64,000 bases of DNA from an uncultured Solirubrobacterales bacterium (GTDB taxonomy: Bacteria; Actinomycetota; Thermoleophilia; Solirubrobacterales; Solirubrobacteraceae), in the NCBI GenBank assembly GCA_963749285.1, contig CAVVMD010000002.1, positions 1,025,275 through 1,089,274 of the forward strand. Direction: 5' to 3'. This document shows, in pieces, positions 39,929-63,919 of this stretch. The number at the start of each line of letters is the position of its first letter. Positions within the stretch are counted from its first letter, which is position 1. Below the pieces are notes generated by a model, which was not told the origin of the DNA, made no database searches, and was given only the letters and a program-made list of their open reading frames with translations. A program made the position numbers and the translations under genes.

Positions 39929-40156
39929 GTGATCTCCCCCCGCATCGACAGACTGCTGGACAACGTCGACTCCAACTACGCCAGCGTGCTCGTGGCCGCC
40001 AAGCGCGCGCGCCAGATCAACAGCTACTACCACAACCTCGGCGAGGGCACGTTCGACGAGTTCCCGCCTCCGATGGTGGAAACGGTCTCCAAGAACTACC
40101 TCACGATCGCCCTCGAGGAGGTAGCAGCAGGGAAGATCAAGTACCACTACCGCTGA
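39929..40156 (+). CDS. rpoZ: RNA polymerase omega subunit
   Basis: SNYASVLVAAKRARQI...IALEEV; stop TGA lies within the left end of the repeat element. Confidence 0.95.
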   Translation: MISPRIDRLLDNVDSNYASVLVAAKRARQINSYYHNLGEGTFDEFPPPMVETVSKNYLTIALEEVAAGKIKYHYR

Positions 40157-40258
40157 GACGGCCGTGGGCCTTCGCGGATGCGTTGTCCTCGGTCGCTCGC
40201 GTACGTAGTACGCCACGCTCTCTGCGTCCTCGCCTCGCTCGACCCACGACCGTCTCAG
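40153..40258 (+). mobile_element. 106-bp MITE/REP-like element, copy 1
   Basis: Terminal inverted repeats CTGAGACGG/CCGTCTCAG; central hairpin GCGTAC-GTA-GTACGC. Confidence 0.85.
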
Positions 40259-40349
40259 CAGCGCAGTTCAACCTCAGAGCGATTCTTTCGCCCTCGCACG
40301 GCTTCGCTCAGGACTTGCCAGTCCCCGACAAGCCCTCTAAAACCAAGCC

Positions 40350-41618
40350 ATGTCCCGAATCCTGCTCGGCGTGAGCGGCGGCATCGCCGCGTACAAGGCG
40401 CTCGAGCTCGTGCGCCTGGCGACGGGGGCCGGGCATGCGGTCAGGGTGGTGCAGACCCCGGCGAGCAGGCGATTCGTCGGGGCGGCTTCGTTCCAGGCGC
40501 TGACGGGCGCGCCGGTGCTCGTCAGCGAGTTCGAGCGCGATCCCGCGCGGGGGGCGTTTCCCGGTCAGCCGCTGCCCGCGCACGAGCCGCTGAGCCACCT
40601 GGAGCTGGTGGCCAACGCCGAGGTCTACGTGATCGCCCCGGCGTCGGCGAACACGCTGGCGAAGCTCGCCGGCGGCCTGGCGGACAACCTGCTCTGCAGC
40701 TGTGCACTGGCATGCGACTGCCCGCTCGTGATCGCCCCGGCGATGAACAACCGCATGTACGAGCACCCGGCGACCCAGGCGAACCTGCGGACGCTGCGCG
40801 CGCGCGGCGCACAGATCGTCGAGCCCGACAGCGGACGGCTGGCGTCTGAAGGTGAGCAGGGGATCGGTCGCCTGGCTGAGCCCGTGCGGATCTTGGCGGC
40901 GTGCGAGGCGGCGCTCGTGAACGCCCCTGCGGCGACGGTTTCGCCAGCACCGTCCGACGGCGCGTGGAGCGGCCTGAGAGTGCTCGTCACGGCGGGAGGC
41001 ACGCGCGAGCCGATCGACAGTGTGAGGTTCGTCGGCAACAGCTCCTCCGGGCGCATGGGACTCGCGCTCGCGCAGAGCGCACGGGCGCGTGGGGCCGAGG
41101 TGACGGTGATCGCCGCCAACGTCGCGCTCGAGCCCCCGCATGGTGTCGCCTGGCGCGAGGTCTGCACCGCCGCCGAGCTGCGCCAAGCCTGCGAGGAGGA
41201 GTTCCCGGCCTGCGATGTCCTGCTGATGACCGCCGCGGTGGCGGACTTCCGACCGGCGGCGCCGGCCGCGGGCAAGATCAAGAAGACCGGCCGCGATCGC
41301 CTGCAGGTGGAGCTCGAGCCGACGGCGGACGTGATCGCGGGCCTGGCCGCTCAGCGTCGCCTCGGTCAGACACTCGTCGGGTTCGCCGCCGAGCACGGCG
41401 AGCGCGCGATCGAGTGCGGCCGGTCAAAGCTCGCGGGCAAGGGTCTGGACGCGGTTGTCGTCAACGACATCTCGCGCTCAGACATTGGTTTTGAGGTGGA
41501 CGCAAACGAGGTCACGATCCTCACCGCCGACGCCGAGCAACACGTACCGCGTGCGAGCAAGCGGCAGGTTGCCGCAGCGATCCTCGATGCCGTCGAACGC
41601 CTGCGAGGGAGTGGTTAA
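40350..41618 (+). CDS. coaBC: Phosphopantothenoylcysteine decarboxylase/synthetase
   Basis: GVSGGIAAYK, APASANT, PAMN..M, TAGGTREPID.VRF.GN.SSG.MG and GFAAE. Confidence 0.97.
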   Translation: MSRILLGVSGGIAAYKALELVRLATGAGHAVRVVQTPASRRFVGAASFQALTGAPVLVSEFERDPARGAFPGQPLPAHEPLSHLELVANAEVYVIAPASANTLAKLAGGLADNLLCSCALACDCPLVIAPAMNNRMYEHPATQANLRTLRARGAQIVEPDSGRLASEGEQGIGRLAEPVRILAACEAALVNAPAATVSPAPSDGAWSGLRVLVTAGGTREPIDSVRFVGNSSSGRMGLALAQSARARGAEVTVIAANVALEPPHGVAWREVCTAAELRQACEEEFPACDVLLMTAAVADFRPAAPAAGKIKKTGRDRLQVELEPTADVIAGLAAQRRLGQTLVGFAAEHGERAIECGRSKLAGKGLDAVVVNDISRSDIGFEVDANEVTILTADAEQHVPRASKRQVAAAILDAVERLRGSG

Positions 41619-41627
41619 GCTGGTCCG

Positions 41628-41996
41628 ATGGAGAGCGTCTATGACCTCTATCGGCGGGGCTGTGACCTGCTCGACCACGGTGATCACCAGGCTGCGATCG
41701 TCCCCCTGAGCAGGGCGCGAGACCTGGAGCCTGACAAGACCTCGATCCGCGAGGCGCTCGGACGGGCTCTGTTTCACGCTCGGCGCTATGAAAGCGCCGC
41801 CGCGGAGTTCCAGGCGGTGGCCTCGAGGACACCCACCAACGACTACGCGCTGTTCTGCCTGGGCCGCTCGATGCAGCTGCTCGGTCGCCATCGCGAGGCA
41901 TGTCAGCCGCTGGCGCTGGCGTGCTCACTGGCCCCCGAGCGCGAGGACTACAGGCGCTACCGTGACCGCGCCCGTCGCGCCGCCCACGGCGATTGA
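41628..41996 (+). CDS. Tetratricopeptide repeat protein
   Basis: Three TPR-like helical repeats (EALGRALF..RRY..A). Confidence 0.85.
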   Translation: MESVYDLYRRGCDLLDHGDHQAAIVPLSRARDLEPDKTSIREALGRALFHARRYESAAAEFQAVASRTPTNDYALFCLGRSMQLLGRHREACQPLALACSLAPEREDYRRYRDRARRAAHGD

Positions 41997-42043
41997 GGGG
42001 CGCCGAGCACCAAGCGAGCAGATGATGCGTGCTCGCCCCGATG

Positions 42044-42123
42044 CTATCCTCGACCGACAGCTTTCGTGCCGGTGTGCAGATGCCGGCAGCAGTGCCGAGA
42101 GTGGGCGCCCGCCCGCTTTTTTT
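42044..42123 (+). terminator. rimP-nusA leader: extended -10 and intrinsic terminator
   Basis: TG-C-TATCCT at 42042-42050; stem AGAGTGGGC/GCCCGCTTT (42098-42119) with a 7-T run at 42117-42123. Confidence 0.75.
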
Positions 42124-42185
42124 ACGTCAGGATCCGGTCGGGTAACGGCCGGGTCAACATAGATGGGAGCAGTGAGCAACGACAG

Positions 42186-42644
42186 ATGACAGCGCTGCAG
42201 GCCGATATCGAAAGCAGGCTCGCCACGAGCGAGCCGGAGGTCGAGGTGCTGCTCGCCGAGGTGGTGGGCGGCCGGCGGCTGCGCGTGTTCATCGACCATC
42301 CGCAGGGCGTCACGCTCGCGCTGTGCGAGCGCGTGAGCACGTGCCTGAACGAGCTGCGCGAACGCTACTCGCTGGAGGTGTCCTCGCCCGGGGGCGAGCG
42401 TCCCCTGACCAAGCCGGCGCATTTTCGTCGCTTCGTGGGGCGGCGTGCGAGGGTGCGTACGCGTCATCCACGCTCACCGGTCCGCTCCGAGCTTACAGCG
42501 AGCGCCGGGCGGCCCGGGCCCGTCAACAGCTTCACCGGCGAGTTGGTGGGGGCCTCCGAGGAGGAGGTCATGCTGGCCGCCGAGGAGGGGATCGTCGCGA
42601 TCCCCTACACCGAGATCCGTCGTTCGAACCTCGTCGAGGAGTGA
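42186..42644 (+). CDS. rimP: Ribosome maturation factor RimP
   Basis: LRVFID, C..VS, YSLEVSSPG.ERPL. Confidence 0.95.
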   Translation: MTALQADIESRLATSEPEVEVLLAEVVGGRRLRVFIDHPQGVTLALCERVSTCLNELRERYSLEVSSPGGERPLTKPAHFRRFVGRRARVRTRHPRSPVRSELTASAGRPGPVNSFTGELVGASEEEVMLAAEEGIVAIPYTEIRRSNLVEE

Positions 42645-42654
42645 GACACTAGAT

Positions 42655-44175
42655 ATGTCACGCGAAATCCTTGAGGCGATGCACGCGTTGGCGCGTGAGA
42701 AGGGAATCGAGCCGGAGAAGCTGATGGTCGCGCTCGAGGATGCGCTGCTGTCCGCCTATAAGAAGCAGCCGGGCTCGGCCAAGTACGCGCGCGTGGAGAT
42801 GGACCGCGAGACCGCCGACTTCCGAGTGATCGAACTGATCATCCCCGAGCGCCTGGAGGCGCACCTGATCGTCGAGACGATCGACGAGGAAACGACGATC
42901 GACCCCGAGACGGGGGAGATGCGCGAACCCGAGGAACCGGAAATCGACCCGGCGAAGTTCGCCGAATATCGCGACCAGATCGACGAGCGCGACGTGACTC
43001 CCGACGACTTCGGGCGGATCGCCGCGCAGACCGCCAAGCAGGTGATCCTGCAACGCATCCGCGAGGCCGAGCGGGACATGATGTTCGAGGAGTACCGCGA
43101 CCGCGTGGGTGAGCTGATCACGGGCATCGTGCAGCAGTCGGACTCCCGCTACACGCTCGTGCAGCTGCGCGAACGCGTCGAGGCGCTGCTGCCCAAGTCA
43201 GAGCAGGTCGAGGGCGAGCGCTACGACCACTCACAGCGGATCAAGGCGGTGATCAAGGAGGTCTCGCCGTCGACCAAGGGGCCGTCGATCATCGTCTCCC
43301 GGCGCGACCCCGAGCTGATCAAGAAGCTGTTCGAGCTGGAGGTTCCGGAGATCGCCGACGGCTTGGTGGAAATCGCCAACGTCGCGCGCGAGCCTGGCTA
43401 TCGCTCGAAGATCGCGGTCGTCTCCAACACCGACGGCGTCGATCCGGTCGGTGCCTGCGTCGGCCCCAGGGGCTCGCGCGTGCGCATGGTCGTCTCCGAG
43501 CTGCGCGGCGAGAAGATCGACATCATCCCCTACAACGACGAGCCCGCCCGGTTCGTCGCCAAGGCGCTCTCACCCGCGCGTGTACGCGAGGTGCTCGTCG
43601 ACGATGAGGCCAAGCAGGCGACGGTGATCGTCCCCGACGATCAGCTCTCGCTGGCGATCGGCCGTGAGGGCCAGAACGCGCGCCTGGCCGCACGCCTGAC
43701 GGGCTGGCGCGTGGACATCCGCTCGGAGACCGAGTTCGCCGCCGAGGAGGCCGAGCATGGCTACGAGGAGGAGGAGGTCCAGGGCCGCTGCGCCGCGATC
43801 CTTTCCAACGGACGGCGCTGTCCGAACGCTTCCCTGCCGGGCTCGCGCTACTGCGGCCTCGAGACCCACCAGGCGCTCGCGAACATCGCAACCGACAACG
43901 TCGTCGACCTGAACGCGCCCGCCGAGGAGCCCACCGCTGGGGGAGGGGACGGCGAGGAGGATGTGGCCGCGCTGGCCCATGACGGCGAGACCGACGCGGC
44001 ACGGCAGGCGCCCCCAGTCGAAGCGGAGCCCATCGCGGAGAAGCCTGACCCCGGAGAGGCACCGGTTGCGGAGGTCTCCGGCGGGCCGGATGAGACCGGC
44101 GCTGCCTCTGAGACGCTCGCCGCTCCGGCGGGGCCCACCGCTCCGAAGTCGCCCGTCGAGGAGCCGGCGCCATAG
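42655..44175 (+). CDS. nusA: Transcription elongation factor NusA with C-terminal Cys3His extension and acidic tail
   Basis: FGRIAAQTAKQVI, S1 domain, AREPGYRSKIAV, DPVGACVG and LAIGREGQNARLA. Confidence 0.97.
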   Translation: MSREILEAMHALAREKGIEPEKLMVALEDALLSAYKKQPGSAKYARVEMDRETADFRVIELIIPERLEAHLIVETIDEETTIDPETGEMREPEEPEIDPAKFAEYRDQIDERDVTPDDFGRIAAQTAKQVILQRIREAERDMMFEEYRDRVGELITGIVQQSDSRYTLVQLRERVEALLPKSEQVEGERYDHSQRIKAVIKEVSPSTKGPSIIVSRRDPELIKKLFELEVPEIADGLVEIANVAREPGYRSKIAVVSNTDGVDPVGACVGPRGSRVRMVVSELRGEKIDIIPYNDEPARFVAKALSPARVREVLVDDEAKQATVIVPDDQLSLAIGREGQNARLAARLTGWRVDIRSETEFAAEEAEHGYEEEEVQGRCAAILSNGRRCPNASLPGSRYCGLETHQALANIATDNVVDLNAPAEEPTAGGGDGEEDVAALAHDGETDAARQAPPVEAEPIAEKPDPGEAPVAEVSGGPDETGAASETLAAPAGPTAPKSPVEEPAP

Positions 44176-44181
44176 GTCCTC

Positions 44182-44477
44182 ATGCACCCCGGCGCAAGTG
44201 CGTCGGCTGTGGGCGCAGCGCGCCGAAGCCGGAACTGGTCAGGATCGCGCTTACCGATCAAAGATCGGCCAGCGTGGGTGAGCGCCGGGCAAGACAGGCG
44301 GCGCTCGACCGCAACGGCACCATGCCCGGGCGTGGTGCCTATTTGTGTCGCGGCGCGAGTGGGGGCGAACCGGCAGCGGACTGCCTGGCGCTTGCCATTC
44401 AGCGCAGCGCAATCGCGCGCGCTTTGCGCTGCGCTGTGACCCTACCCGCCGAGCTCGTAGAATCGGTTGGCCGATGA
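44182..44477 (+). CDS. ylxR: YlxR/RnpM-family RNA-binding protein; start codon out of frame
   Basis: PRRKCVGC...ELVRI...GRGAYLC in the frame ending TGA 44477; ATG 44182 is one base off-frame. Confidence 0.85.
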
Positions 44478-46906
44478 GCAAGAAGCGCGTACATGAAATC
44501 GCCAAGGAGCAGGGCATATCCAGCAAGGAGCTGCTGGAGAAGCTGCATGCCGCCGGCGTGGAGGCGAAGACCGCTTCCTCATCGGTCGAGGAAGCCGCCG
44601 TGCGCGAGGCGCTGGGGAACGAGACCCCGCCTGCCCCGTCCGCCACGCCTACCTCCGCCGCTGTTGCGAGCGCACCTGCGTCCACCTTCACTTCCACCGC
44701 CACCGCGACCGCATCGCCTCCCAAGCCTTCGTCCAAGCCCGCGCCGTCGATCACTCCAAACGGCGCGTCGGCACCCCCCGCATCAAAGCCCGCGGCGTCT
44801 GCTGGAGGCCAACAGGAGGCTGCGCCCGCGCCTGTCGCTCCAGTCCAGCCCGAGGCCGCCGCGGACGCCGCAACCGAGCCACAAGCTTCCTCCGGCACGA
44901 CCGAGGACTCCACCAATCCCGCGGCCGAGCGCGTGCGTCCCACGCGCGACTCGCGCACGGGCGAGCGGGCGCCGGCGAGCAGCGCGCCGGGAGGTCGCCG
45001 ACGTGTGGTGATCGACTCGCAGGCCTCGCGCCGTCAGCAGGGCGGGCCGGCCAACCAGCCCCAGCGTCGCCCTCGCCGTGGCCGGCGCCGGCGCGGGACC
45101 TACGACGAGACGATCGCGCCGATCGACACGACCGCGATCCAGGAGACCGACCTCGTGCGCGTCAACTCCGGTTCGACGGTCAAGGATGTCGCCGAGTACC
45201 TCGGCGCGCCGGTGCCCGAGATCATCAAGAAGCTGATGATGCTCGGGGAGATGGCGACGCTCACCCAGACGCTGTCCGATGACGCGATCCAGGTGCTCGC
45301 CGACGAATTCGAGAAGAAGATCGAGATCGTCCACGCCGCCGACGACGTCGAAGTCGAGCCCGTGTTCGAGGACGCCGACGAGGACCTGATCGAGCGCCCG
45401 CCGGTGGTGACGATCATGGGGCACGTCGATCACGGCAAGACCTCGCTGCTGGACGCGATCCGTGAGACCGAGGTGGCGGCCGGCGAGGCGGGTGGCATCA
45501 CCCAGCACATCGGCGCCTACCAGGTGCGCCACGGCGGCAAAGAGATCACGTTCCTGGACACGCCCGGGCACGAAGCGTTCACGGCGATGCGCGCGCGTGG
45601 CGCGCGCGTGACCGACCTCGCGGTGATCGTGGTCGCGGCCGATGACGGCGTCAAGCCCCAGACCGAGGAGGCGATCGACCACGCCCGCGCCGCCGAAGTG
45701 CCGATCGTGGTGGCCGTGAACAAGATCGACAAGGAGGGCGCCCAGCCCGAGCGCGTGCGCACAGAGATGACCCAGCACGGACTGCAGCCCGCGGAGTGGG
45801 GCGGGGAGATCGAGTTCGTCGACGTCAGCGCCAAGACACGCCAGGGCCTGGACTCGCTGCTGGACACGATCCAGGTGGTCACCGACCTCGAGGAGCTGAA
45901 GGCCAACAGCGACGCCGACGCCTCCGGCACCGTGATCGAGTCCAAGCTCGACCCCGGGCGTGGGCCGGTCGTGAGCGTTCTGATCCAGCGTGGGACGCTG
46001 AATGTCGGTGACGCGCTGGTCGCCGGCGCGCACTTCGGGCGGGTGCGCGCGATGAACGACTTCACCGGCGCTCGCGTCAAGCACGCCACACCGGGCCAGC
46101 CCGTCGAGGTACTGGGCTTTGATGGTGTCCCCGAGGCGGGCGAGATCGTGCGCGTGGTCGAGAACGAGCGCCGCGCGCGCCAGCTCGCGGGCGAGCGCGC
46201 GAACCGTCTGAAGACCGAGGCGCTGGCGCGGCGATCGGGCCGCAAGGTGTCCCTCGAGGACGTGTTCAAGCTCGCCCAGGAGGGGACCGTCAAGGAGCTT
46301 GGCCTGGTCGTCAAGGCTGACGTCGCGGGCTCGCTCGAGGCGATCGAGGACGAGATCGCCAAGCTGCCCCAGGAAGAGGTCAACGTCAACATCATCCATC
46401 GCGGCGTGGGCGGTATCAACGAGTCCGACGTGATGCTCGCCGCGGCATCCCGAGGAGTGATCCTGGCTTTCAACGTGCGACCCGTCGGCGAAGCGCGCCA
46501 CGTGGCCGAGCGCGAGGGTGTGGAGATCCGCTCCTACTCGGTGATCTATCGCGCGATCGAAGAGCTGCGCGCCGCGATGCAGGGCATGCTCGAGCCGACC
46601 GAGGTCGAGACGCCGCTCGGGCAGGCGGAGGTGCGCCAGCTGTTCCGTGCCTCGCGGATCGGGACGATCGCCGGCTCGTTCGTGACCGAGGGCAAAGTCA
46701 CGCGCGGGGCGAAAGCGCGCGTGGTGCGCGAGGGAACGGTCATCTACGACACGACCATCGCGAGCCTGCGTCGCTTCAACGAGGACGCGCGCGAGGTCGC
46801 CACCGGCTTTGAGTGCGGGATCGTGCTCGCGAACTTCCAGGACCTGCGCGAGGGCGACATCCTCGAGACCTACGAGACGCGCTTGCAGGAGCGCGAGCTC
46901 TCCTGA
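44474..46906 (+). CDS. infB: Translation initiation factor IF-2
   Basis: [33 protein letters not shown] and GFECG. Confidence 0.98.
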
Positions 46907-46907
46907 G

Positions 46908-47013
46908 CTGAGACGGCCGATGGCCTGCGCGGATGCTGCGTCCTCAGTCGCTCGTGTGCCGAGCACACTTCGCTCCTTGCGTCCTTGCACCGCTTGACCC
47001 TCGGCCGTCTCAG
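46908..47013 (+). mobile_element. 106-bp MITE/REP-like element, copy 2
   Basis: 13-bp perfect TIR CTGAGACGGCCGA/TCGGCCGTCTCAG; central hairpin GTGTGC-CGA-GCACAC. Confidence 0.88.
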
Positions 47014-47044
47014 AACGCTCGGAAGCCCCTCCGGGAGAGGTCAC

Positions 47045-47145
47045 CGCGATCGCTCATGCGCCGAGCACACTTCGCTCACTGCGTCCTTACCGATCGGAGG
47101 TCGACGGGATCTCCGATCGGCCAGCTTGACCCTCGACCGCCTCAG
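47045..47145 (+). mobile_element. Partial copy 3 of the element with an internal hairpin insertion
   Basis: GCCGAGCACACTTCGCTC.CTGCGTCCTT...GCTTGACCCTCGACCGCCTCAG; inserted CCGATCGGAG...CTCCGATCGG inverted repeat. Confidence 0.75.
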
Positions 47146-47226
47146 AGCGCATGGAGCCTCTGATGGAAGATTGTCGATACGAGCGAAGAGTGGGCGCCGA
47201 TCACCGGAGGGAGTTGGGGGGATAGG

Positions 47227-49442: not shown

Positions 49443-49456
49443 GCTGTGCGGCCGTG

Positions 49457-55732: not shown

Positions 55733-55894
55733 ACTCGACGGCAGCCAGATCGGCGGGGATGAGATGTCTTTTGCGAGCGCTCCCTGATCGCACACGCGCT
55801 GGGCCGCGGTCACTGCGCGCTTGGCTGCCGCGCGGGGGGTCTCGGCACCTCGACAGCCCGAGCTTGTCCTGAGCTTCGTGAGATACTGCTCGCC

Positions 55895-56791
55895 ATGCCC
55901 GACCTGGACCTAGGCACGATCCTGACCGCGATCGTCACGCCCTTCGGCGCCGATGGGGGCGTCGATGAGGACGCCTTCGTCGCGCTGATGGCCCACCTCG
56001 CCGCGAACGGCTCGGACGGCTTCGTGGTGGCGGCGACCACCGGCGAGGCCGCGACGCTCACCGACGAGGAGCAGCTTGCCCTGATCGAGCTGGCGATCGC
56101 CGAGCGCCCCGCCGGCAAGACGATCGTGGCCGGCGCCGGCGGGAACGACACGCGCCACGCCGTCTTGCTCACCGAACGCGCGACCGCGCTCGGCCCGGAC
56201 GCGATCATCTCCGTGACGCCGTACTACAACCGCCCGAGCCCGCTGGGGCTCAAGCGCCACTATGAAGCCGTCGCCCGCGTCACCGACAGGCCGATCCTGC
56301 TCTACAACATCCCCAGCCGCACGGGCACCAACATCGGGCCCGAGCTGCTCGCCGAGCTCGCGCAGATCGACGGCATCGAGGGGGTCAAGCAGGCGAACGC
56401 CGCTGAGCTGCAGCTGATCGACGGCTTGGCGGTGTATGCGGGCGATGACAGCTCGTTCGCGCGCACGCTGGACATCGGTGGGGCCGGTGGGGTGGCGGTG
56501 GCCAGTCACATCGTCGGCCCCGAGATGCGCCGGATGGTGGACGAGCCCGCGCATCGCGCGGAGATCGACGCCTCTTTGCGCGACGTCTATGAGACCCTGT
56601 TCATGACCGCGAGCCCCACCTGCACCAAGGCCGCACTGAACCTGCTCGGTCTGAACGCCGGCACCACGCGCCTGCCGATCGTCGACGCCACCGCGCAGGA
56701 GACCGCTTTGGTGCGCGCGATGCTCGAGCGTCACGGGTTGCTTGACCCCAGCGCCTCCGCCACGCACGCCGGAGAGGCTTCCGCCGCGTGA
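55895..56791 (+). CDS. dapA: 4-hydroxy-tetrahydrodipicolinate synthase
   Basis: TTGEA.TL, PYYN.P, LYNIPSRT and GVKQA (Schiff-base Lys). Confidence 0.96.
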   Translation: MPDLDLGTILTAIVTPFGADGGVDEDAFVALMAHLAANGSDGFVVAATTGEAATLTDEEQLALIELAIAERPAGKTIVAGAGGNDTRHAVLLTERATALGPDAIISVTPYYNRPSPLGLKRHYEAVARVTDRPILLYNIPSRTGTNIGPELLAELAQIDGIEGVKQANAAELQLIDGLAVYAGDDSSFARTLDIGGAGGVAVASHIVGPEMRRMVDEPAHRAEIDASLRDVYETLFMTASPTCTKAALNLLGLNAGTTRLPIVDATAQETALVRAMLERHGLLDPSASATHAGEASAA

Positions 56792-58458
56792 GCTCCACGT
56801 TGCGCGTCCTGCCCCTAGGCGGTTTGGGGGAGATCGGCAAGAACATGACGGTCGTCGAGCAGGACGACCGCATCGTCGTCGTCGACGTCGGGTTGCGCTT
56901 CCCCACGCCCGAGATGGTCGGGATCGACCTCGTCCTGCCCGACTTCTCCTACCTGCGCGAGCGCGCGCGCGACATCGAGGCGATCGTCGTCACGCACGGG
57001 CACGAGGACCATCTCGGCGCTTTGCCCTGGGTTTTGCGCGAGCTGGCCGTCCATGGCGCCACGCCGCCCGTGTACGGCGGCCCGCTGACGTTGGCGATGG
57101 CCCGCTCCAAGCTCGAGGAGCACAAGCTCAAAGACGTTGAGCTCAACGACGTCTCGCCCGGGGAGGCTTTGGATTTGGGGCCCTTTGAGCTGGAGCTGAT
57201 CCACATGACCCACTCGATCCCCGACGCCTCCGCGGTCGCGCTCGGCACCGAGCTGGGGACCGTTTTGATCACCGGCGACTACAAGTTCGACCAGACGCCC
57301 GTGGACGGGCCGCCCGCGGATGTCTCGCGCCTGGCCGAGCTCGGGCGCGAAGGCGTCCTGCTCCTGTGCGGGGACTCCACGAACGTGGACCGCCCCGGCT
57401 TCTCCCCATCGGAGTCGGGGGTCGGGCCGCACCTGGAGGAGGCCTTCGCACGCTGTGACGGGCGGATCGTCGTCACCAGCTTCGCGTCGAACATCCACCG
57501 CGTGCAGCAGGTCGTGGACGCCGCCGCCGCGCTGGACCGCAAGGTCGCGCTGGTGGGGCGCTCGATGCGCAAGAACGTCGCGATCGGCCGTCAGCTCGGC
57601 CACATCGAGGTGCCCGACGGGATGCTCGTCGGCCCGCGCGAGATCGAAGACTTCCCCGACGAGCGCGTCGTGATCATCTCGACGGGCTCCCAGGGCGAGC
57701 CCTTGAGCGCTTTGCGGCGGATGGCCTACCGCGACCACCCGCAGGTGCAGCTGCGCGGCGGCGACACGGTCGTGTTCTCCGCCACGCCCGTCCCCGGCAA
57801 CGAGCGCGCCGTCAACGAGACGATCGACCGTCTCTACCACATCGGCTGTGACGTCGTCACCCCGGCAGACGCGCCCGTCCACGCGTCAGGACACGGCTAT
57901 GCCGAGGAGGTCAAGCTGATGCTTAACCTTGTTCGCCCGCGCTACGTGATGCCGTTTCATGGCGATTTCAAGCGCCTGCGCCTGCACGCGCAGCTGGCGG
58001 AGGCCGTCGGCGTGGCGCCCGAGGACATCTTCCAGGGGGACAACGGTCTGCCGCTCGACCTCGACACGCGCGGCGCGCGCTTTGGCTCGCGCGAGCAGTC
58101 CGGGATGATCTTCGTCGACGGCGTCGAGATCGGCGACATGGCGGACGTCGCGTTGCGCGACCGGCGGATGCTCTCCGCCGACGGGATCTTCATCGTCGTC
58201 GCCACGATCGCCGAGCAGGACGGGCGCTCGGTGGCCGACCCCGAGGTGATCTTCCGCGGCGTCCCCTTCCTCGATCAGGCCGACGAGCTCGTGGACGAGA
58301 TCCGCGCGACGGTCGAGTCCTCTTTGCGACGGGCGGCCGGGGAGGAGATCCACGAGGTCGATCTGCTCCAGCAGCTTTTGCACGACGATCTGGCGAAGCT
58401 CGTGTACGACCGGCTCAAGCGGCGGCCGATGGTGTTGCCTGTGGTTGTGGAGGTGTAG
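56788..58458 (+). CDS. rnj: Ribonuclease J
   Basis: LGGLGEIGKNM, THGHEDHLG, HSIPD, GDYKFD and HASGH. Confidence 0.97.
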   Translation: MSSTLRVLPLGGLGEIGKNMTVVEQDDRIVVVDVGLRFPTPEMVGIDLVLPDFSYLRERARDIEAIVVTHGHEDHLGALPWVLRELAVHGATPPVYGGPLTLAMARSKLEEHKLKDVELNDVSPGEALDLGPFELELIHMTHSIPDASAVALGTELGTVLITGDYKFDQTPVDGPPADVSRLAELGREGVLLLCGDSTNVDRPGFSPSESGVGPHLEEAFARCDGRIVVTSFASNIHRVQQVVDAAAALDRKVALVGRSMRKNVAIGRQLGHIEVPDGMLVGPREIEDFPDERVVIISTGSQGEPLSALRRMAYRDHPQVQLRGGDTVVFSATPVPGNERAVNETIDRLYHIGCDVVTPADAPVHASGHGYAEEVKLMLNLVRPRYVMPFHGDFKRLRLHAQLAEAVGVAPEDIFQGDNGLPLDLDTRGARFGSREQSGMIFVDGVEIGDMADVALRDRRMLSADGIFIVVATIAEQDGRSVADPEVIFRGVPFLDQADELVDEIRATVESSLRRAAGEEIHEVDLLQQLLHDDLAKLVYDRLKRRPMVLPVVVEV

Positions 58459-58459
58459 G

Positions 58460-58505
58460 GGGCCTTCGGGCGGTACTCCCGGGCCGTTGTCCTCGGTACT
58501 CTCAG
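58460..58505 (+). repeat. Degenerate remnant of the 106-bp element
   Basis: GGGCCTTCG...CGTTGTCCTCGGT...CTCAG matches the 5' half and end of copy 1. Confidence 0.5.
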
Positions 58506-58694
58506 AAGCGGGGCGGAGTCTGGTCGCCTGCCCTGGTTGTGGGTGGTATTGGGGGGATGGTCGTTATAGCTACGTACCCCCTCGTAGTGGCAAAAGAAGC
58601 GCTATTGCTTGCCGGCCGTTCTTGCTGTTGGATTGAGGTTTTGACGATGTTTGCGGCCGGTCGTGCCGACCGGCTACGGGGATAAGATGCGATT

Positions 58695-58718
58695 CTGAGC
58701 GGCCTTCGGGCGGTTCAG
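58695..58718. terminator. UUCG-capped hairpin between convergent rnj and kinase genes
   Basis: CTGAGCGGCC-TTCG-GGCGGTTCAG. Confidence 0.5.
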
Positions 58719-60187
58719 ATGGTTGTCGATGGGGTTACCGGTCGGGATGGGGGTGGGATTCCCTTCGCTGTGGATGGCAGATCTACTACGAACCGCGCGC
58801 CTTGGGGAACCCGATCCGAGAGCGTGACCGAGCCGCCGTGTGACTCCGCTACCGCGCGGACGATCGCGAGACCCAGGCCGAACGAGCCGCCGCGGTCCCC
58901 GGCGCCGCGGACGAAGCGCTCGAACAGGGTGGGAGCCAGCTCGGGAGGCACGCCCGGGCCATCGTCCTCGACTACCAGCTCGGCCAGGCCGTTCACCAGG
59001 CGCGTGCTGACCCGGATCTCGCTCCCGGGCGGGGTGTGGCGCAGCGCGTTCTCGATCAGGTTGATCGTCAGGCGATGCAGCTCGTCGCGCGCCCCCTCGA
59101 CCGGCGCCGGCTGGACGTCCAGCTCGATGTCGTGCGCCTCGCTGACGGGACCCAGCTCGCCGGCTGCCTCGACTACGATCTGGGCGAGATCGCACGGCTC
59201 GTGCGCGACGACGCGCCCCACGTCGGTGCGCGCCAGCAGCAGCAGGTCCGCCACCAGCCGGCGCATGCGCTGGGATGAGCGCAGGGCCGAGCGGGCGGCA
59301 TCGCCCTCTTCTCCCCGCAGCGAGTCGGCCAGCAGCTCGAGGTTCGCGAGCACGCTCGTCAGAGGCGTTCGCAGCTCGTGCGAGGCGTCGGCGACGAACC
59401 TGCGCTGGCGGGCGAGCATCGCCTCGGTCTCGCCACGCGCGGCGTCCAGCTCCCTGAGCATGCCCTCCAGGGTGCGCGCGAGCTCGGCGACCTCGTCGTC
59501 GGCCTCGGGCTGAGGGACGGTGCGAGAGGGGTCGCGGGTGCGCGCGATCTCCGCGGCGGCCCCCGTGAGCTCGGCGATCGGCGCCATTGCGCGCCGGGCG
59601 ATCGCGACCCCGGCGAGCAGGGCCAAGCCGGCCCCGGCGAACACTCCCACGAGCAGGAACAACTCGACGCGCGCGACCGTCGCCTCGGTGTCCGCGTCCG
59701 AGCGCCCGTACTGGATGATGACCCGGCCGATCGGCTCGCCGCTGCCGGCGATGCGGATGATCGCGGAGCGGCTGACCACCCGGTAGTCCGAGATCGTGTG
59801 CGGCGTGTTCGACGGCGAGCCTAGGTTCGGCGCGCTCGAGGGCGCCTGTTCGATCGTGGCTCCGCCGAGTGTGAGCACGCGGATGGCCGCCTCCTGCTCG
59901 GGCGTGACGAGATCCGCGAGCGGCGGTTCGATCGATTCGATCTTGTATGTCGCCGGATCGACCTTGATGTTCAGCTCGGAGGGCAGCTGCTGGGCGGTCG
60001 TTTCGACCTCGCGATTGAAGTCCGAGCGGATGCGGCGCACCGTCAGCGAGCCGATCGCGATCGCGAACGCGCACAGGATCGTGAACGTCAGCAGCGCCGA
60101 GACCCCAGCCAGGCGCGTGCGGATCGGCAGCCGGTCGAATGTCGCCGTCACCCGTTTGAAGAAAGAATCGCCCTCTGAGCGTCTCAT
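58715..60187 (-). CDS. HAMP-domain sensor histidine kinase
   Basis: Two TMs, HAMP, FVADASHELRTPLT (H-box), NLIENA, DDGPG and GLGLAIV; start uncertain. Confidence 0.93.
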   Translation of the reverse strand: MRRSEGDSFFKRVTATFDRLPIRTRLAGVSALLTFTILCAFAIAIGSLTVRRIRSDFNREVETTAQQLPSELNIKVDPATYKIESIEPPLADLVTPEQEAAIRVLTLGGATIEQAPSSAPNLGSPSNTPHTISDYRVVSRSAIIRIAGSGEPIGRVIIQYGRSDADTEATVARVELFLLVGVFAGAGLALLAGVAIARRAMAPIAELTGAAAEIARTRDPSRTVPQPEADDEVAELARTLEGMLRELDAARGETEAMLARQRRFVADASHELRTPLTSVLANLELLADSLRGEEGDAARSALRSSQRMRRLVADLLLLARTDVGRVVAHEPCDLAQIVVEAAGELGPVSEAHDIELDVQPAPVEGARDELHRLTINLIENALRHTPPGSEIRVSTRLVNGLAELVVEDDGPGVPPELAPTLFERFVRGAGDRGGSFGLGLAIVRAVAESHGGSVTLSDRVPQGARFVVDLPSTAKGIPPPSRPVTPSTTI

Positions 60188-60277
60188 GACCAAGCTGGGC
60201 GACGCGGGACGACGAAGGGCGTACAGGTAGTACGTCCGAGGCGGCACGTGGCGATCCAGCGCCGTGTCAGGAGATGC

Positions 60278-60964
60278 TCAGGCGCGGAGGACGTATCCGG
60301 CTCCCCGGATCGTGTGCAGCAGCCGGGGCTCGCCGTCGGCCTCGAGCTTGCGACGCAGGTTCGAGACGAACACCTCGATCGTGTTCGTCGTGGAGAACGG
60401 ATCATACCCCCACACCTCGTCCAGCAGACGCTGGCGCGAGATGACGATGCGCTCGTTGCGCATCAGGTACTCGAGCAGCTCGAACTCGCGCTGGGTGAGG
60501 TCGATCGCGCGCTCGCCCCGGATCACCTCGTGGGTGTCCCCGTTCAACGACAGATCGGCCACACGCAGCGGGGCGGACCCACGCGGTGGGCGACGACGCA
60601 GCAGCGCGCGCATGCGCGCCAGCAGCTCCTGGCGCTCGAACGGCTTGACCAGATAGTCGTCCGCGCCGGCGTCCAAGCCCTCCACGCGCGACTCCAGCGC
60701 GTCGCGGGCGGTGAGGATCAGGATCGGCACGTCGTCCTCGGCCCGCAGGCTGCGCGCGACCTCCAGCCCGTCCAGCCCGGGCAGGCCCAGGTCGAGGATC
60801 ACCAGATCGGGCGCGAACGCGCGCCCATGCTCGAGCGCCGTGGGACCGTCGGGCGCGGCGCGCACCTCGTACCCCTCCATCCTCAGCGAGCGTTGCAGGG
60901 CTTGGGCGATGTCCTCGTCATCCTCGACGACGAGCACTCTTGGGGCGCGGGAGAAGTCATTCAT
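60278..60964 (-). CDS. OmpR-family response regulator (MprA/PrrA-like)
   Basis: LVVEDD, ILDLGLP, LTARD, GADDYLVKPF and TIRGAGY. Confidence 0.96.
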   Translation of the reverse strand: MNDFSRAPRVLVVEDDEDIAQALQRSLRMEGYEVRAAPDGPTALEHGRAFAPDLVILDLGLPGLDGLEVARSLRAEDDVPILILTARDALESRVEGLDAGADDYLVKPFERQELLARMRALLRRRPPRGSAPLRVADLSLNGDTHEVIRGERAIDLTQREFELLEYLMRNERIVISRQRLLDEVWGYDPFSTTNTIEVFVSNLRRKLEADGEPRLLHTIRGAGYVLRA

Positions 60965-61187
60965 CGGAGGAGGCCGTTCATGGGCGGGAAGTCGTTCATG
61001 AGCAGGGTTCTTTATGTAGCGGGATGCGCTAAAGCGATGGTAAGGGTTCGCGCCAGGATAGATGGTGGGGTTCGCCGGGCGGAGCTCAGGGGTTGCACGC
61101 GCGGAGTTGAGCCCGAGGCGCGGGCGATCCCGTGCGCCGTGTCCAGCCGCTAGAGGACCCCACGGGCTGGCGTCGAAGTTGCGCGAG

Positions 61188-63662
61188 ATGGCTGCGACCA
61201 GGAGGCGCTCGACAGCGCCGAGGAAAACGACTGCGAAAACCGCCGCGGCGAAAAGGCGCGCGCGTACGCGCTCCCGCGCGCGCGTACGCCGCGGGCGGAG
61301 CGTGGGACTCATGCCGCGGGATCTGGTCAGGCGAGTGTGGCCGCCGCGCAAGCCCGAGCTCGACCAGCGTCAACGTGACATGCTCGGATTCGGCATGATC
61401 GCCGTGGGCGTGTTCCTCGGCTTCGTCCTGTACGGCGGCTGGAATGGGGGACGCGTCGGCAGCGGATTGACCGAAGCCCTCGGCTGGTGCATCGGTGAAG
61501 CGAAGGTCTTCGTCCCGATCGCGCTCGTAGCGGGCGGCGGGGCGCTGCTGGCGCGGCCGGCGTGGCCGCAGATGCGCCCCCTCAGGACCGGTGCGACGTG
61601 CATCGCGGCGGCCGTGATGATGGCGCTGGCGGCCGGGACGCTCGGGGTCAGCTCGGGCGCGAGCCCCGAGCGCGGCGAATCATCGTGGTCGGCCGTGTTC
61701 CTGCAGTCGCATGGGGGCGTCGTCGGCGAGGCGCTGTACCGCGTCTCACACAGGCTGGTGCAGAGCGTGGGCGTGGACATCCTGATTGTGTTCCTGCTGT
61801 TTGTCGGGGCGACGCTGCTGACGGGCGCCTCGCCCGCGGGCGTGCTGCGCTCGGCCGGCGAGCGTCTCTGGAAGCTGGTGCGGGGCTTGCGCAGGCAGCC
61901 GGCGTCTGTGGAGCCCTTGGAATCACTGCTGGTGCCCGAGCCGGAGCCCGAGGATCTGATCGTGCGGGCGACGCACGTGGAGGCGCCGTCGCGGGACGGG
62001 GTGGAGATGGACGAGGACTTCGCCGCCGAGGCGCTCCCGGGGGAGACCGGCGCAGAGGTCGCGGTGGGTACCGGCGACGATGCCGAGGAGGAGGCGATCC
62101 CAGGCGTGGCGCACGCGGACGCGGACGCGGACACCAAGCTGACGCCACAGGGTCGCTACCGCGACAGCGTGACCGAAGACCCCGACTTCGTATGGGAGCT
62201 GCCGGACGCGAGCAGGCTGCTGACACGCTCCACCGGCGAGCAGTCACGCCCGGACACCGTCGGGCAGGAGCGCACGGCGCTGAGCCTGGTCGAGGCGCTG
62301 GGTCATTTCGGCGTGCAGGCGAAGGTGATCGGGACGGTCGCGGGACCGCACATCACCCGCTATGAGCTGCGCTTGGCGCCGGGCACGAAGGTCGCGAAGG
62401 TGGCGCAGCTCAAGGACGACCTCGCATATGCCCTGGCGGCGACGGACATCCGTATCCTCGCGCCGATCCCCGGCAAGCAGGCCGTCGGGGTGGAGGTGCC
62501 CAACGCGCGCCGCAAGATCGTTCGGCTCGGCGATGTGTTCCAGCAGCCGCCGCATGACTGGTCGCCGCTGACGGTGTGGCTCGGCAAGGACGTCGCCGGC
62601 AAGGCGATCGGCGCGGACCTCGCGAAGATGCCCCATCTGCTCGTGGCGGGTACGACCGGGGCAGGCAAGTCCGGCGCGATCAACGCGATGCTCTCAAGCG
62701 TTCTGCTGCGCGCCAGCCCGCACGAGGTGCGCCTCGTGCTGGTCGACCCCAAGCAGGTGGAGCTCAACCACTACGAGTCGATCCCGCACCTGCTGACGCC
62801 GGTGATCACAAGCCCGCGGATGGCCGCGAACGCGCTGGGAAACCTGGTGCGCGAGATGGAGCAGCGCTACGGGATCATGTCGTTGGCGCGCACACGCAGC
62901 CTGATCGAGCTGAACAAGGCGCGCTCCAAGCGCGACGAAGCCCCTTTGCCGTACATCCTCTGTGTGATCGACGAGCTCGCGGACCTGATGATGGTCGCGC
63001 CGGCGGACGTGGAGGACTCGATCATCCGTTTGGCGCAGAAGGCGCGCGCGGTCGGGATCCATCTCGTGCTGGCGACCCAGAGCCCGCGCGTAGACGTGAT
63101 CACCGGGATGATCAAGGCGAACGTGCCCTCGCGCATCGCGTTCGCGGTCTCCTCGCAGACCGACTCGCGCGTGATCCTCGACCAGAACGGCGCCGAGTCG
63201 CTGCTCGGGCAGGGCGACATGCTGTTCAGCCCCGTCGGGAGCTCGCGCCTGCAGCGGATCCAGGGCGCATATATCGACGAGGCGCAGATCGCGCGACTGA
63301 CGGAGCTGTGGCGCAAACAGGGCGAGCCCGAGCTGCGCGAGGAGTTGCTGGAGGAGGTCGTGCCCTCAGAGCCCGAGGGCACGCCGGACGAGTTCGACCC
63401 CGACGAGGACCCGCTGCTGAAGGATGCGATCGTGCTCGTGGCGGAGATGGGCACGGCGTCCACCTCGATGCTGCAGCGCAGGCTGCGGCTGGGCTATACG
63501 CGCGCCGGCAGGCTGATCGACATGCTCGAGCGCCGCGGCGTGATCTCCGGGTATGAAGGCTCCAAGCCCCGGCAGGTGCTCGTCGGCGAGGCGGATCTGC
63601 CGCGAGTGCTGGCCGGATTGGAATCCCCACCCATCCAGCCGTCGGCCCCCGTGGAGTTGTGA
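61188..63662 (+). CDS. ftsK: DNA translocase FtsK
   Basis: N-terminal TMs; alpha domain GP.ITRYE; GTTGAGKS; IDELADLM; gamma domain QRRLRLGYTRAGRL. Confidence 0.97.
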   Translation: MAATRRRSTAPRKTTAKTAAAKRRARTRSRARVRRGRSVGLMPRDLVRRVWPPRKPELDQRQRDMLGFGMIAVGVFLGFVLYGGWNGGRVGSGLTEALGWCIGEAKVFVPIALVAGGGALLARPAWPQMRPLRTGATCIAAAVMMALAAGTLGVSSGASPERGESSWSAVFLQSHGGVVGEALYRVSHRLVQSVGVDILIVFLLFVGATLLTGASPAGVLRSAGERLWKLVRGLRRQPASVEPLESLLVPEPEPEDLIVRATHVEAPSRDGVEMDEDFAAEALPGETGAEVAVGTGDDAEEEAIPGVAHADADADTKLTPQGRYRDSVTEDPDFVWELPDASRLLTRSTGEQSRPDTVGQERTALSLVEALGHFGVQAKVIGTVAGPHITRYELRLAPGTKVAKVAQLKDDLAYALAATDIRILAPIPGKQAVGVEVPNARRKIVRLGDVFQQPPHDWSPLTVWLGKDVAGKAIGADLAKMPHLLVAGTTGAGKSGAINAMLSSVLLRASPHEVRLVLVDPKQVELNHYESIPHLLTPVITSPRMAANALGNLVREMEQRYGIMSLARTRSLIELNKARSKRDEAPLPYILCVIDELADLMMVAPADVEDSIIRLAQKARAVGIHLVLATQSPRVDVITGMIKANVPSRIAFAVSSQTDSRVILDQNGAESLLGQGDMLFSPVGSSRLQRIQGAYIDEAQIARLTELWRKQGEPELREELLEEVVPSEPEGTPDEFDPDEDPLLKDAIVLVAEMGTASTSMLQRRLRLGYTRAGRLIDMLERRGVISGYEGSKPRQVLVGEADLPRVLAGLESPPIQPSAPVEL

Positions 63663-63716
63663 GCGTGGCCGTTCGAGCGTGAGCGGTCACAGGGCCTATC
63701 CGGTAGGGACGTGCGG

Positions 63717-63823
63717 CTGGGGCGTTCTAGGGTCGAGTGGAGCGCGGACGCAAGGGCGAAGGCATGGTGGTGTCATGTTGAGCCCGAGGACAAAGCTCCG
63801 CGAAGGCCATCGGGCGCATCCAG
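63717..63823 (-). mobile_element. Reverse-orientation copy 4 of the 106-bp element, flanked by an 8-bp direct repeat
   Basis: GGACGCAAGG.GCGAAG and CCGAGGACAAAGCTCCGCGAAGGCCATCGG match reverse complements of copies 1/2; ACGTGCGG at 63709-63716 and 63824-63831. Confidence 0.8.
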
Positions 63824-63919
63824 ACGTGCGGGCCTAGCGGGATATGTCCTTAGCACGCACTGCACGAAAGCGTGCTGAGCACCTTGTGAAAGCCGCAAAC
63901 CTCTAGCCTTCACGCCGGT

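Follow-up and report, generated by a model that had tools for sequence, protein, structure and literature searches.

The window analysed here, a 64,000-nt stretch from an uncultured Solirubrobacterales bacterium, contains members of a hairpin repeat family of ~105 bases that is apparently new to the literature. It is reasonably probable that the family is an old one, spread throughout the order and made up of small, non-autonomous, mobile DNA repeats of the REP/MITE/TRIT kind, which are defined by their structure. The Solirubrobacterales, actinobacteria that abound in soil, have hardly any genetics, and from sequence searches those of soil are estimated to carry about 100 copies per genome. 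By occupying ~100 gene ends in each genome, such a repeat influences the structure of operons as well as annotation and assembly. The family is also unusual among bacterial interspersed repeats in that a stop codon is built into its stem, the interior is invariant with the stems free to vary, and the same module is found as cargo of unrelated TIR elements.

Five members are located within the window (Table 1). The two 106-bp copies of a preliminary description of this DNA were both recovered as complete members by the covariance model. Copy 1 does provide the stop codon of rpoZ, as had been proposed. The 5' arm of its outer stem P1 opens with C-TGA-G, and this TGA (40154-40156) closes the rpoZ ORF (39929-40156), which has a Pfam RNA_pol_Rpb6 match. 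The (G)RGCGYAGT motif of its 3' tail is found directly 3' of P1 in approximately one third of copies. Within the first 15 nt 3' of the element GCGCA, GCAGT, and CGTAG are enriched 3.5-7 fold, and GRGCG follows P1 in other species too. Copy 2 begins 2 nt past the stop codon (46904-46906) of infB, which encodes IF-2, and shares 88% identity with a paralogue in the same genome. The partial copy downstream was also rightly assigned to the family; this copy 3 is 5'-truncated, carries a nested hairpin, and is supported by nhmmer (hmm 41-110) and by a local covariance model match at 47045-47088 (E 2e-5). The reverse copy previously placed at 63717-63823 is likewise a member, though divergent, and is one among 15 near-identical copies in the genome. 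Membership could not be upheld for the candidate remnant behind the RNase J gene, which has only GGCCTTCG and GTTGTCCTCGGT in common with the family (an 8-nt and a 12-nt block) and gave neither a covariance model match (E<=10, filters off) nor an nhmmer match. A degenerate member, absent from the preliminary description, lies on the reverse strand between the genes of an OmpR-type response regulator and a histidine kinase. Its P1 and P2 are typical, its interior has diverged, and the TGA stop of the regulator (60280-60278) falls inside P1.

Table 1. Members of the hairpin repeat family and associated features in the window.
Feature	Coordinates	Strand	Remarks
Copy 1, complete	40153..40258	+	Covariance model 101.7 bits, E 1e-24; between rpoZ and coaBC
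3' tail of copy 1, CAGCGCAGTT	40259..40268	+	Fits loose motif (G)RGCGYAGT
Copy 2, complete	46908..47013	+	Covariance model 114.5 bits; upstream of rbfA (RBFA match)
Copy 3, 5'-truncated, model positions 34 to end, terminal CCTCAG	47045..47145	+	
Nested perfect-hairpin insert, 38 nt, TACCGATCGGAGGTCGACGGGATCTCCGATCGGCCAGC	47088..47125	+	Past second GTCCT motif of copy 3
Candidate remnant 3' of RNase J stop	58460..58505	+	Membership unsupported
Fifth, degenerate member	60171..60285	-	Covariance model 21 bits, E 0.004
Composite TIR element, 158 bp, copy 4 as cargo	63692..63849	.	TIR GGGCCTATCCCGMTAGG
Copy 4, hairpin module of subfamily A, divergent	63714..63825	-	Covariance model 32 bits, nhmmer 64 bits

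The whole unit of ~105 bp forms a single long irregular hairpin. From the outside inward it consists of the outer stem P1 of ~16 bp, which opens with CTGAG, CTGAC, CTAG, or CATGAG, a second stem P2, a long mismatched interior, and an apical stem-loop P3, with a short 3' tail following the element. The interior is made up of fixed pyrimidine-pyrimidine mismatches, with GCGTCCTC-NN-TCGCTC facing CGCTC-NN-TGCGTCCTT, interrupted by 2-bp mini-helices. These mismatched, pyrimidine-rich "loops" show next to no variation, in contrast to the stems, and the interior remains near-invariant across two classes. Two GCGTCCT motifs, each containing CGTC, are present as direct repeats inside the one hairpin. 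Many copies also harbour a nested hairpin, which recurs at three stereotyped positions; its arm motif has 38 matches genome-wide (about two per hairpin), 22 of them inside main elements.

Strong covariation is observed in P1, P2, P3, and the 2-bp mini-helix (NN). Paired cells amount to 89.7% vs. 70.1% in shuffles, and 635 cells are changed on both sides vs. 206 when shuffled, with 0/500 shuffles as high. Slid controls are 26-50% paired. Double-sided changes at three pairs of P3 were found in 45, 11, and 7 sequences, and P1 displays double changes at 13/13 pairs. The conserved blocks and covarying central stem of the preliminary description are thus real, and the family is defined by a structure with significant covariation. 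Part of the apparent covariation reflects lineage history, as the P1 ends are largely subfamily-specific. A model in which the core was placed into pre-existing terminator hairpins, making P1 host-derived, was rejected as the inner P1 is subfamily-specific.

The mismatches in the helices bear on the nature of the paired molecule; among them G·U (60) and A·C (84) are about equally common (invariant helix excluded). As G·U is not favoured over A·C, an RNA-type asymmetry between strands is not seen, the pairing looks to be at the level of DNA and not of an RNA fold, and the earlier suggestion of a structured RNA under structural selection becomes doubtful. Pairing also continues upstream of the stop codon, in runs of at least two pairs, in 26/36 copies compared with 4.7 expected. 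The G-rich strand folds more stably in 27/38 non-A copies, making the sense strand the weaker fold. Reading-through or coding of the element is uninformative because the stop-poor strand leaves all three sense frames open.

Stop codon position and orientation proved to be family-wide rules, which goes beyond the preliminary description. The stop of the co-oriented gene lies inside the first P1 pairs, at the 5' end of the element, in 57/75 complete copies in this genome, compared with 4.9% at random positions and with 12/75 at the 3' end. The corresponding values in other species are 69/92 and 32/92, with 6.3% at random. Element and gene have the same orientation in 63 cases and opposite orientations in 12. 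Divergent (promoter) spacers are avoided, containing 3/127 copies. Housekeeping operons, including those of ribosomal proteins, tolerate the element, which is over-represented there; copies lie inside the S10/spc/str and nusG-rplK operons, and are found in ribosomal-protein, nusG, fusA-tuf, infB, ftsZ, and rnc loci. The stops within elements are TGA (46) and TAG (17), close to genome usage (65/27/8%). Two further accounts of this placement were rejected. Orientation by replication direction does not hold, with a weak gene-strand bias and elements that track their gene, and insertion into the middle of a short palindrome can account for a single site (el7, GGCTGA|TCAGCC in G007) but not for the others.

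The family is as abundant as first supposed, with an iterated nhmmer profile giving 127 matches across this 3.4-Mb genome, 53 of which are near full length. At least 120 further loci, outside this genome and mostly in Solirubrobacterales MAGs, contain the core motif. The covariance model matches 93/121 Solirubrobacterales genomes, representing 35/48 genera, and 19/251 genomes sampled phylum-wide, which include a second lineage from another family. No Rfam family reaches gathering score for the element, and searches of plasmid and phage collections gave no match to it. RF02963 (DUF3800-IV RNA) aligns to copy 2 alone at 25.3 bits (E 0.02-0.05), compared with a gathering threshold of 60.7 bits, and this alignment depends on the GC-rich outer stem. 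Rfam matches at the level of E-values, such as miRNA precursors and DUF3800-IV, were dismissed as long-hairpin noise. The family was not found described in literature searches.

Copies have been gained and lost among species of one genus. The rpoZ site is empty in five same-genus genomes, the infB site is empty in 12/14, and several further sites are likewise empty in close relatives. At the infB site, G003 carries a different variant with ~76% identity to copy 2 (hand count) and G007 carries an unrelated low-GC insert. Empty sites mostly carry TGA, not CTAG.

The element is non-autonomous as far as is visible, with no autonomous partner found. Within the genome, self-BLAST of IS copies, end inspection, and an orphan-core-motif search revealed no IS that has the ends or the core motifs of the repeat, and the lead of IS10/IS50-type "CTGA ends" came to nothing as no genomic IS has these ends. 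Ordinary copies display no direct repeat abutting P1 and no regular target-site duplication (TSD). The longest-common-substring distribution around copies is near null, bar a few long outliers, and a regular TSD including the 3' tail was rejected on finding a shared 9-mer or longer in 10/75 copies only (~2.6 expected). Long direct repeats flank a few copies (17-19 bp, 62 bp) and may be secondary duplications; the 62-bp repeat, at rnc with two adjacent copies, looks like a local segmental duplication.

The 8-bp TSD attributed to copy 4 on the basis of its flanking ACGTGCGG repeats is an internal part of a larger element. Copy 4 is the cargo of a composite TIR element in which CCGCACGT is repeated internally, one on either side of the hairpin module, in all 15 near-identical copies. 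TIR pairs with a spacing of 158 nt occur at 15+ loci. Of the composite copies, 9/15 are flanked by a 3-bp direct repeat of T(T/A)A type, which is degenerate around the one in the window.

As mobile DNA, the repeat would matter in folded form, either as a single-stranded hairpin or as a cruciform, and not as an RNA fold. We infer this because the mismatches show no bias of G·U over A·C and because P1 pairing in one copy after another runs on into the host gene's final codon. The agreement between arms would be most economically accounted for if one arm were copied from the other, which could occur via quasi-palindrome template switching at replication, or through outer pairs being made upon insertion. 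A putative trans-acting protein would probably recognise the repeat by its invariant mismatched interior. Selection would then filter orientation, with the surviving strand placing the C-rich, SD-free, weaker-folding version in mRNA, where the element would behave as an intercistronic or 3'-UTR hairpin. By analogy with proposals for TRIT and Correia, such an mRNA hairpin is likely an RNase III substrate or an exonuclease barrier. Against the mobile DNA reading, the near-invariance of the interior could equally be the outcome of selection by the host on each copy, whether for a function as RNA or for protein binding.

It is possible, and we hold it tentatively, that the element acts above all in cis as an RNA of the host, translation-coupled and located in 3'-UTRs or between cistrons, with selection keeping each copy and mobility only the mode of spread. 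It may be a processing site for RNase III, may stabilise the mRNA, or may present Rho with a C-rich loading site on a hairpin scaffold, which is opened as the terminating ribosome melts P1. The strong preference for the sense orientation (63:12; 57 vs. 12) is consistent with such a role, as is the stop within P1, which means that the terminating ribosome must open the 5' arm. The loops are C-rich, YC-rich, and nearly invariant over the order and the second lineage, copies are tolerated in the S10/spc/str and nusG-rplK operons, and TRIT, which has the same stop overlap, has since come to be regarded as a substrate of RNase III (PMC13714241). However, the sense strand shows no preference for G·U over A·C and folds more weakly. 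Sister species also have or lack the element at the same gene with no visible consequence, and near-identical copies occur inside TIR elements in random contexts.

A more doubtful proposal is that a conserved host factor docks on the interior, in folded ssDNA or in RNA, with the hairpin as a portable module in at least three vehicles. Insertion of the free form would be at translation stops, by a mechanism not previously described in which the stop and the last codon become part of the inverted-repeat stem. Besides this free stop-docking form, the vehicles may include two TIR elements, one of 158 bp and TNA type and the other, in a different lineage, with CTAGTG ends.

An ordinary TIR-type MITE of the IS630/Tc1 or IS5 kind is improbable. 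Here the target would be TA/CTAG or TNA, and stops would be the commonest tolerated TA sites at 67% GC. CTAG...CTAG ends do fit C-TA-[G...C]-TA-G, CTAG is 6-fold under-represented in this genome, and one IS with CTAGTG ends is present. The module also lies inside true TIR elements in subfamily A, with the T(T/A)A repeat at 9/15 A copies, as well as in the f10/f11 lineages. Most ends are nevertheless CTGAG...CTCAG or CTGAC...GTCAG with no fixed TSD, and because of these ends the flanking triplets are inverted, not direct, repeats. The terminal sequences covary, unlike a conserved transposase site. With the TGA of most empty sites and the genome-like stop usage, the prevailing CTGAG/CTCAG ends led to the rejection of a CTAG/TA target, and the lack of an autonomous partner in the genome also counts against such a MITE.

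Movement as ssDNA by a RAYT/TnpA Y1 HUH enzyme, which would make the repeat REP/REPIN-like or an IS200/IS605-derived palindrome-associated element, is very improbable. A structure-defined hairpin with conserved unpaired bases, no TSD, a location at gene 3' ends, and DNA-level pairing would all suit this origin, and the CGTC motifs resemble those of CGTC-tagged REPs, themselves lacking a dedicated transposase (Di Nocera et al. 2013, PMC3733652). The HUH/RAYT lead nonetheless failed, as PF01797 (RAYT, Y1 HUH) has no match in this genome (G000, 92.9% complete) and matches 6/14 control genomes. The element is also ~3x REP length, its GCGTCCT motifs are direct and not inverted, and the 5' side of the hairpin lacks a GTAG tag. 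It is scarcely credible that the repeat is a retro-mobile (SINE-like) element for which the 3' ends of mRNAs serve as templates of a resident reverse transcriptase (RT) of group II type. Such an origin would agree with co-orientation with transcription, the few long, variable flanking direct repeats (17-62 bp), and three RVT_1 genes in the genome. Most copies, however, lack flanking repeats, there is neither a 3' homopolymer nor a copy linked to an RT, local duplication explains the long repeats (two adjacent copies at rnc), and the symmetric hairpin logic is unlike RT.

The family of small mobile DNA repeats favoured here shares features with several known systems. MIRU are also actinobacterial intercistronic repeats with ends that overlap the stop and start codons of operon genes, but instead of forming long hairpins they are arranged as direct repeats in tandem and contain small ORFs. 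Integron attC sites are imperfect hairpins of 60-140 bp directly 3' of a co-oriented ORF, with structure conserved above sequence, and are recognised as folded single-stranded DNA via unpaired bases. However, attC sites have conserved ends with R/L boxes and a variable inside, the reverse of the element, and occupy cassette arrays beside intI, whereas copies of the element are dispersed after core genes. Correia/NEMIS of Neisseria and ERIC/IRU of enterobacteria are mobile palindromes of ~100-150 bp that are co-transcribed with genes; their orientation affects RNA, and Correia is processed by RNase III. They differ in having sequence-conserved TIRs and, for Correia, a TA duplication, whereas the ends of the element covary, its ordinary copies have no TSD, and three quarters are on stop codons. 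REP/BIME and REPIN-RAYT are likewise interspersed extragenic palindromes at gene 3' ends, mostly in tandem or convergent spacers, and are structure-defined with subfamilies. At ~105 bp vs. 20-40 bp the element is three times longer than a REP and forms one long hairpin, not an inverted dimer. Unlike REPIN-RAYT it has no RAYT gene and no GTAG 5' of the stem, and a stop codon is built into that stem.

TRIT (Tuberculosis Rho-independent terminator motif) of Mycobacterium comprises 147 palindromic, mostly bidirectional copies in a very narrow position relative to stop codons, overlapping the coding-sequence end. A terminator function has not been proven for it (Gardner et al. 2011, PMC3152330), and it has been reinterpreted as an RNase III substrate (PMC13714241). 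Like the element, TRIT is an actinobacterial multi-copy palindrome conserved in sequence and structure with a narrow stop-overlapping position, which in the element corresponds to the first P1 pairs of ~75% of copies. Compared by description, TRIT is a short single hairpin of ~45-50 nt reported only from Mycobacterium, whereas the element is ~105 nt with a mismatched conserved interior, optional nested hairpins, and clear presence/absence polymorphism. With TRIT, the family suggests that Actinomycetota may repeatedly evolve stop-codon-overlapping palindromes. The role of such palindromes, be it in RNase III processing, in Rho loading, or as pure selfish DNA, is thereby testable in a second, independent system.

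The hairpins at rpoZ and infB belong to a large repeat family in the source genome. Copies 1 and 2 are both complete members and share 78% identity by direct reading and alignment, while the reverse-strand copy and the partial copy of the preliminary description are recovered by R1, the covariance model of the family. The abundance proposed there is borne out in the 3.40 Mb assembly (67% GC, three contigs), of which the window covers C2:1025275-1089274. BLASTN with the copies as queries gave 282 HSPs, and an iterated nhmmer profile gave 127 matches spread over the two large contigs, of which 53 are nearly full length. The remnant suggested at 58460-58505 did not survive, since an unfiltered R1 search at E ≤ 10 still gave no match there. 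R1 added a degenerate fifth member, which is flanked by an OmpR-type response regulator and a histidine kinase and contains the response regulator's TGA in its outer stem. An annotated-looking ORF overlapping this member has no Pfam match and is probably spurious.

Element copies and other features located in the window
Feature	Position	Strand	Remarks
Copy 1	40153-40258	+	full length; R1 101.7 bits
Copy 2	46908-47013	+	full length; R1 114.5 bits
Copy 3	47045-47145	+	partial; R1 local match
Nested hairpin TACCGATCGGAGATCGACGGGATCTCCGATCGGCCAGCA	47088-47125		within copy 3
Copy 4	63717-63823	-	divergent full-length relative; R1 32 bits
Fifth member	60171-60285	-	degenerate
Response regulator	60278-61351	-	OmpR-type
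ORF	60248-61153	+	probably spurious
SAM (S-box) riboswitch	2935-3025	+	Rfam, gathering score
tRNA gene	27607-27679	-	Rfam, gathering score
IS copy	21504-22792
IS copy	24210-25372
IS copy	26069-27576

Every copy folds into one long hairpin, with a consensus fold derived from A2, a cross-species alignment of 23 copies of the source genome and 81 from other species. The outermost helix, P1, has 13 modelled pairs and starts CTGAG, CTGAC, CTAG or CATGAG. Inside it lies P2, where GGCGC-NNN pairs with NNN-GC-TT-GCC, then an invariant 3-bp helix and, innermost, the apical stem-loop P3. The stretches separating the helices are pyrimidine-rich and nearly invariant. The conserved interior sets GCGTCCTC-NN-TCGCTC opposite CGCTC-NN-TGCGTCCTT, which means that one strand carries both motifs as direct repeats; NN forms a 2-bp mini-helix (GG:CC 58, AG:CT 6, GC:GC 4, CC:GG 2, GA:TC 2, and others). 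About one third of copies have, after P1, a loose 3' tail matching (G)RGCGYAGT. Genome-wide, CTAG is ~6-fold under-represented, with 1685 occurrences vs. ~10380 expected from base composition.

The covarying stem of the preliminary description held up in the aligned copies. In the consensus fold 89.7% of cells are paired, compared to 70.1 ± 0.5% in 500 shuffles, and 635 cells carry changes on both sides vs. 206 ± 17, a value reached in none of the 500 shuffles. Shifting the partner by 1-3 columns lowers pairing to 26-50%. Double changes occur in all 13 P1 pairs and in 21 of the 29 pairs of the whole fold. One anecdotal case, a double change from TCGCTC/CGCTC to TCCCTC/CGGTC in the infB copy of the same-genus genome G003, suggests that the conserved "loops" may in reality be irregular helix. 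Many copies also hold optional nested hairpins, notably TACCGATCGGAGATCGACGGGATCTCCGATCGGCCAGCA, at three stereotyped sites: after each GTCCT and in P3. This mini-hairpin forms a second-order family of ~19 hairpins genome-wide, and the orthologous copies at FtsZ in the source genome and a same-genus relative (G007) differ in its presence. A collapsed form of the mini-hairpin may survive as the short loop CGGTCGCT.

By a GC3-based ORF call, tandem gene pairs enclose 75 of the hits and convergent pairs 24, whereas divergent pairs enclose only three. Tandem copies lie in the same orientation as the genes in 63 cases and opposite in 12. Among 75 complete copies outside subfamily A, the type of copy 4, 57 contain, within the 5' terminus, the stop codon of a co-oriented ORF that is long and high in GC3; in 12 a convergent gene stops at the 3' terminus, and eight copies show both, compared to 4.9% at random positions in the source genome. 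In other species, 69/92 and 32/92 copies follow the stop-codon rule vs. 6.3% at random. Within P1 the stop codon takes up the first pairs; where it is fully paired, copy-specific pairing runs on into the last sense codon, with position -1 paired in 94% of copies and -2 in 72%, although the bases there are mixed. Runs of at least two pairs upstream of the stop occur in 26 of 36 copies vs. 4.7 expected. Stop usage in the genome is TGA 65%, TAG 27% and TAA 8%. The genes 5' of elements, several of them named by eye from translated sequence, are mostly housekeeping (RpoZ, IF-2, NusG, L11, S7, EF-G, L23, L2, L6, L28, FtsZ, ClpP, DnaB, Mfd, NrdJ, NuoD/K, GlmS and TrpE). Beyond the window, at C2:647216-647612, lie two copies in which, as is rare, the G-rich strand is the sense strand; they follow the RNase III gene rnc and the ORF after it, with smc shortly downstream.

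On the transcribed strand of a structured RNA, G·U mismatches are normally frequent and A·C mismatches scarce. In the helices of 103 model-aligned copies, the invariant one excluded, the counts are 60 for G·U and 84 for A·C, which favours neither strand. The more stable fold is that of the G-rich strand, the antisense of the usual mRNA, in 27/38 copies outside subfamily A, mainly via purine-rich loop energies. Together with the way P1 runs on, copy by copy, into coding sequence, these observations lead us to infer that complementarity is maintained at the DNA level. Arm-to-arm copying by quasi-palindrome template switching, an established mutational mechanism, would be the likely route; alternatively, the outer pairs may be created at insertion. 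The copies are almost certainly transcribed, judging by their place inside operons and mostly sense orientation, and a host cis-acting RNA function, as an RNase III site, stabiliser or Rho-loading scaffold, is conceivable but rather unlikely. We consider it probable that the family is selfish mobile DNA recognised by its structure, with RNA-level effects filtering the surviving copies.

Copy 4 represents 15 near-identical copies, all with the common flanks ...GGGCCTATCCCGCTAGGCCCGCACGT-module-CCGCACGTCCCTATCGGGATAGGCCC..., which define a 158-bp carrier with 17-bp terminal inverted repeats (TIRs; pairs 158 nt apart). A 3-bp T(T/A)A-type direct repeat surrounds 9/15 carrier copies. The ACGTGCGG repeat, previously read as an 8-bp target site duplication (TSD), is therefore internal to the carrier; it may be the trace of one ancient module insertion and is not a duplication made at 63.7 kb. 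In the f10 and f11 genomes of the phylum-wide sample, the homologous module again sits within a longer element, whose outer inverted repeats start (CT)AGTG(G/C)CCC. Besides occurring free, the hairpin is thus cargo in no fewer than two unrelated TIR vehicles. An ordinary TIR MITE is an improbable reading of the family.

No fixed TSD was found at ordinary copies. A few have long direct repeats in which an overlapping stop/start junction is duplicated, of 17-19 bp at C2:835532 and of 8-9 bp at three junctions of the ATGA or GTGA type. A 62-bp direct duplication of the rnc 3' end surrounds one of two adjacent copies, and this adjacency points to local segmental duplication. The preliminary description suggested looking for a transposase flanked by the element's ends; none of the ~ten IS families found by self-BLAST of the genome shares ends or core motifs with the element. 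The suggested HUH/RAYT lead likewise came to nothing, as Y1 HUH transposase PF01797 is absent from the genome, and a REP/RAYT system is very unlikely. A retro-element is the least credible reading, with three RVT_1 (group II-like) genes present and none linked to copies. IS110 relatives target REP-like hairpins. A 1.47-kb IS110-family IS (C3:1279620-1281089 and C1:32329-33798), encoding a 403-aa IS110-type (DEDD) transposase, begins exactly at the 3' end of an element copy.

A 20-nt core pattern matches at least 120 loci, nearly all in Solirubrobacterales, Solirubrobacteraceae or Thermoleophilaceae MAGs among the matches listed. R1 matches occur in 93/121 genomes and 35/48 genera of the order, with copy numbers per genome from 0 to beyond 31, the scoring cap, and in 19/251 genomes of a phylum-wide sample, among them members of f10, a family of the same class, and eleven genomes from f11, a single family outside the class. 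Empty sites, sought as the preliminary description proposed, were found: the infB-rbfA spacer is 25-95 bp and element-free in 12/14 same-genus genomes, and none of the five genomes checked at rpoZ-coaBC has the element there. At infB, the single copy in G003 belongs to a different variant, with ~76% identity by hand count although the flanking infB has 87%, and G007 has an unrelated low-GC insert. At other sites, some same-genus relatives have the element and some lack it. Copy 2 matches a paralogue (88%) better than it matches the copy that G003 has at infB, so either sites are hit more than once or paralogues overwrite them; in both cases the family turns over within the time that species take to diverge.

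In the window, Rfam at gathering score gave nothing beyond the riboswitch and tRNA gene, and the three IS copies have counterparts elsewhere in the genome at 94-99.7% identity. Perfect palindromes abut one another in an array 3' of the nusG element (C3 ~1284250-1284400); their centres are GCATGC or ACATGT, their arms are unrelated, and they appear to be another repeat family of Solirubrobacterales. The two large contigs share a 13.7-kb duplicated segment at 98.5% identity (C2:13769-27513 vs. C3:57367-43617), and 3.0 kb of C3 sequence recur at one end of the 34-kb C1 and 1.5 kb at the other; these may be assembly or repeat artefacts.

For the element itself Rfam has no family at threshold (best DUF3800-IV, 25 bits vs. 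60.7), plasmid and phage records gave no match, and full-text literature searches found no description of the family. It belongs to the bacterial interspersed palindromic repeats, and is distinct by its stop-codon docking, invariant mismatched interior, nested hairpins and carriage in TIR elements. Our ranking of the five readings follows from inferred in-operon transcription and the precedent of TRIT and Correia elements, the latter behaving similarly to TRIT with respect to RNase III. The closest precedent is TRIT of Mycobacterium, a palindrome with 147 copies in a narrow, stop-codon-overlapping position (PMC3152330), which is now regarded as an RNase III substrate and not as a transcription terminator (PMC13714241).
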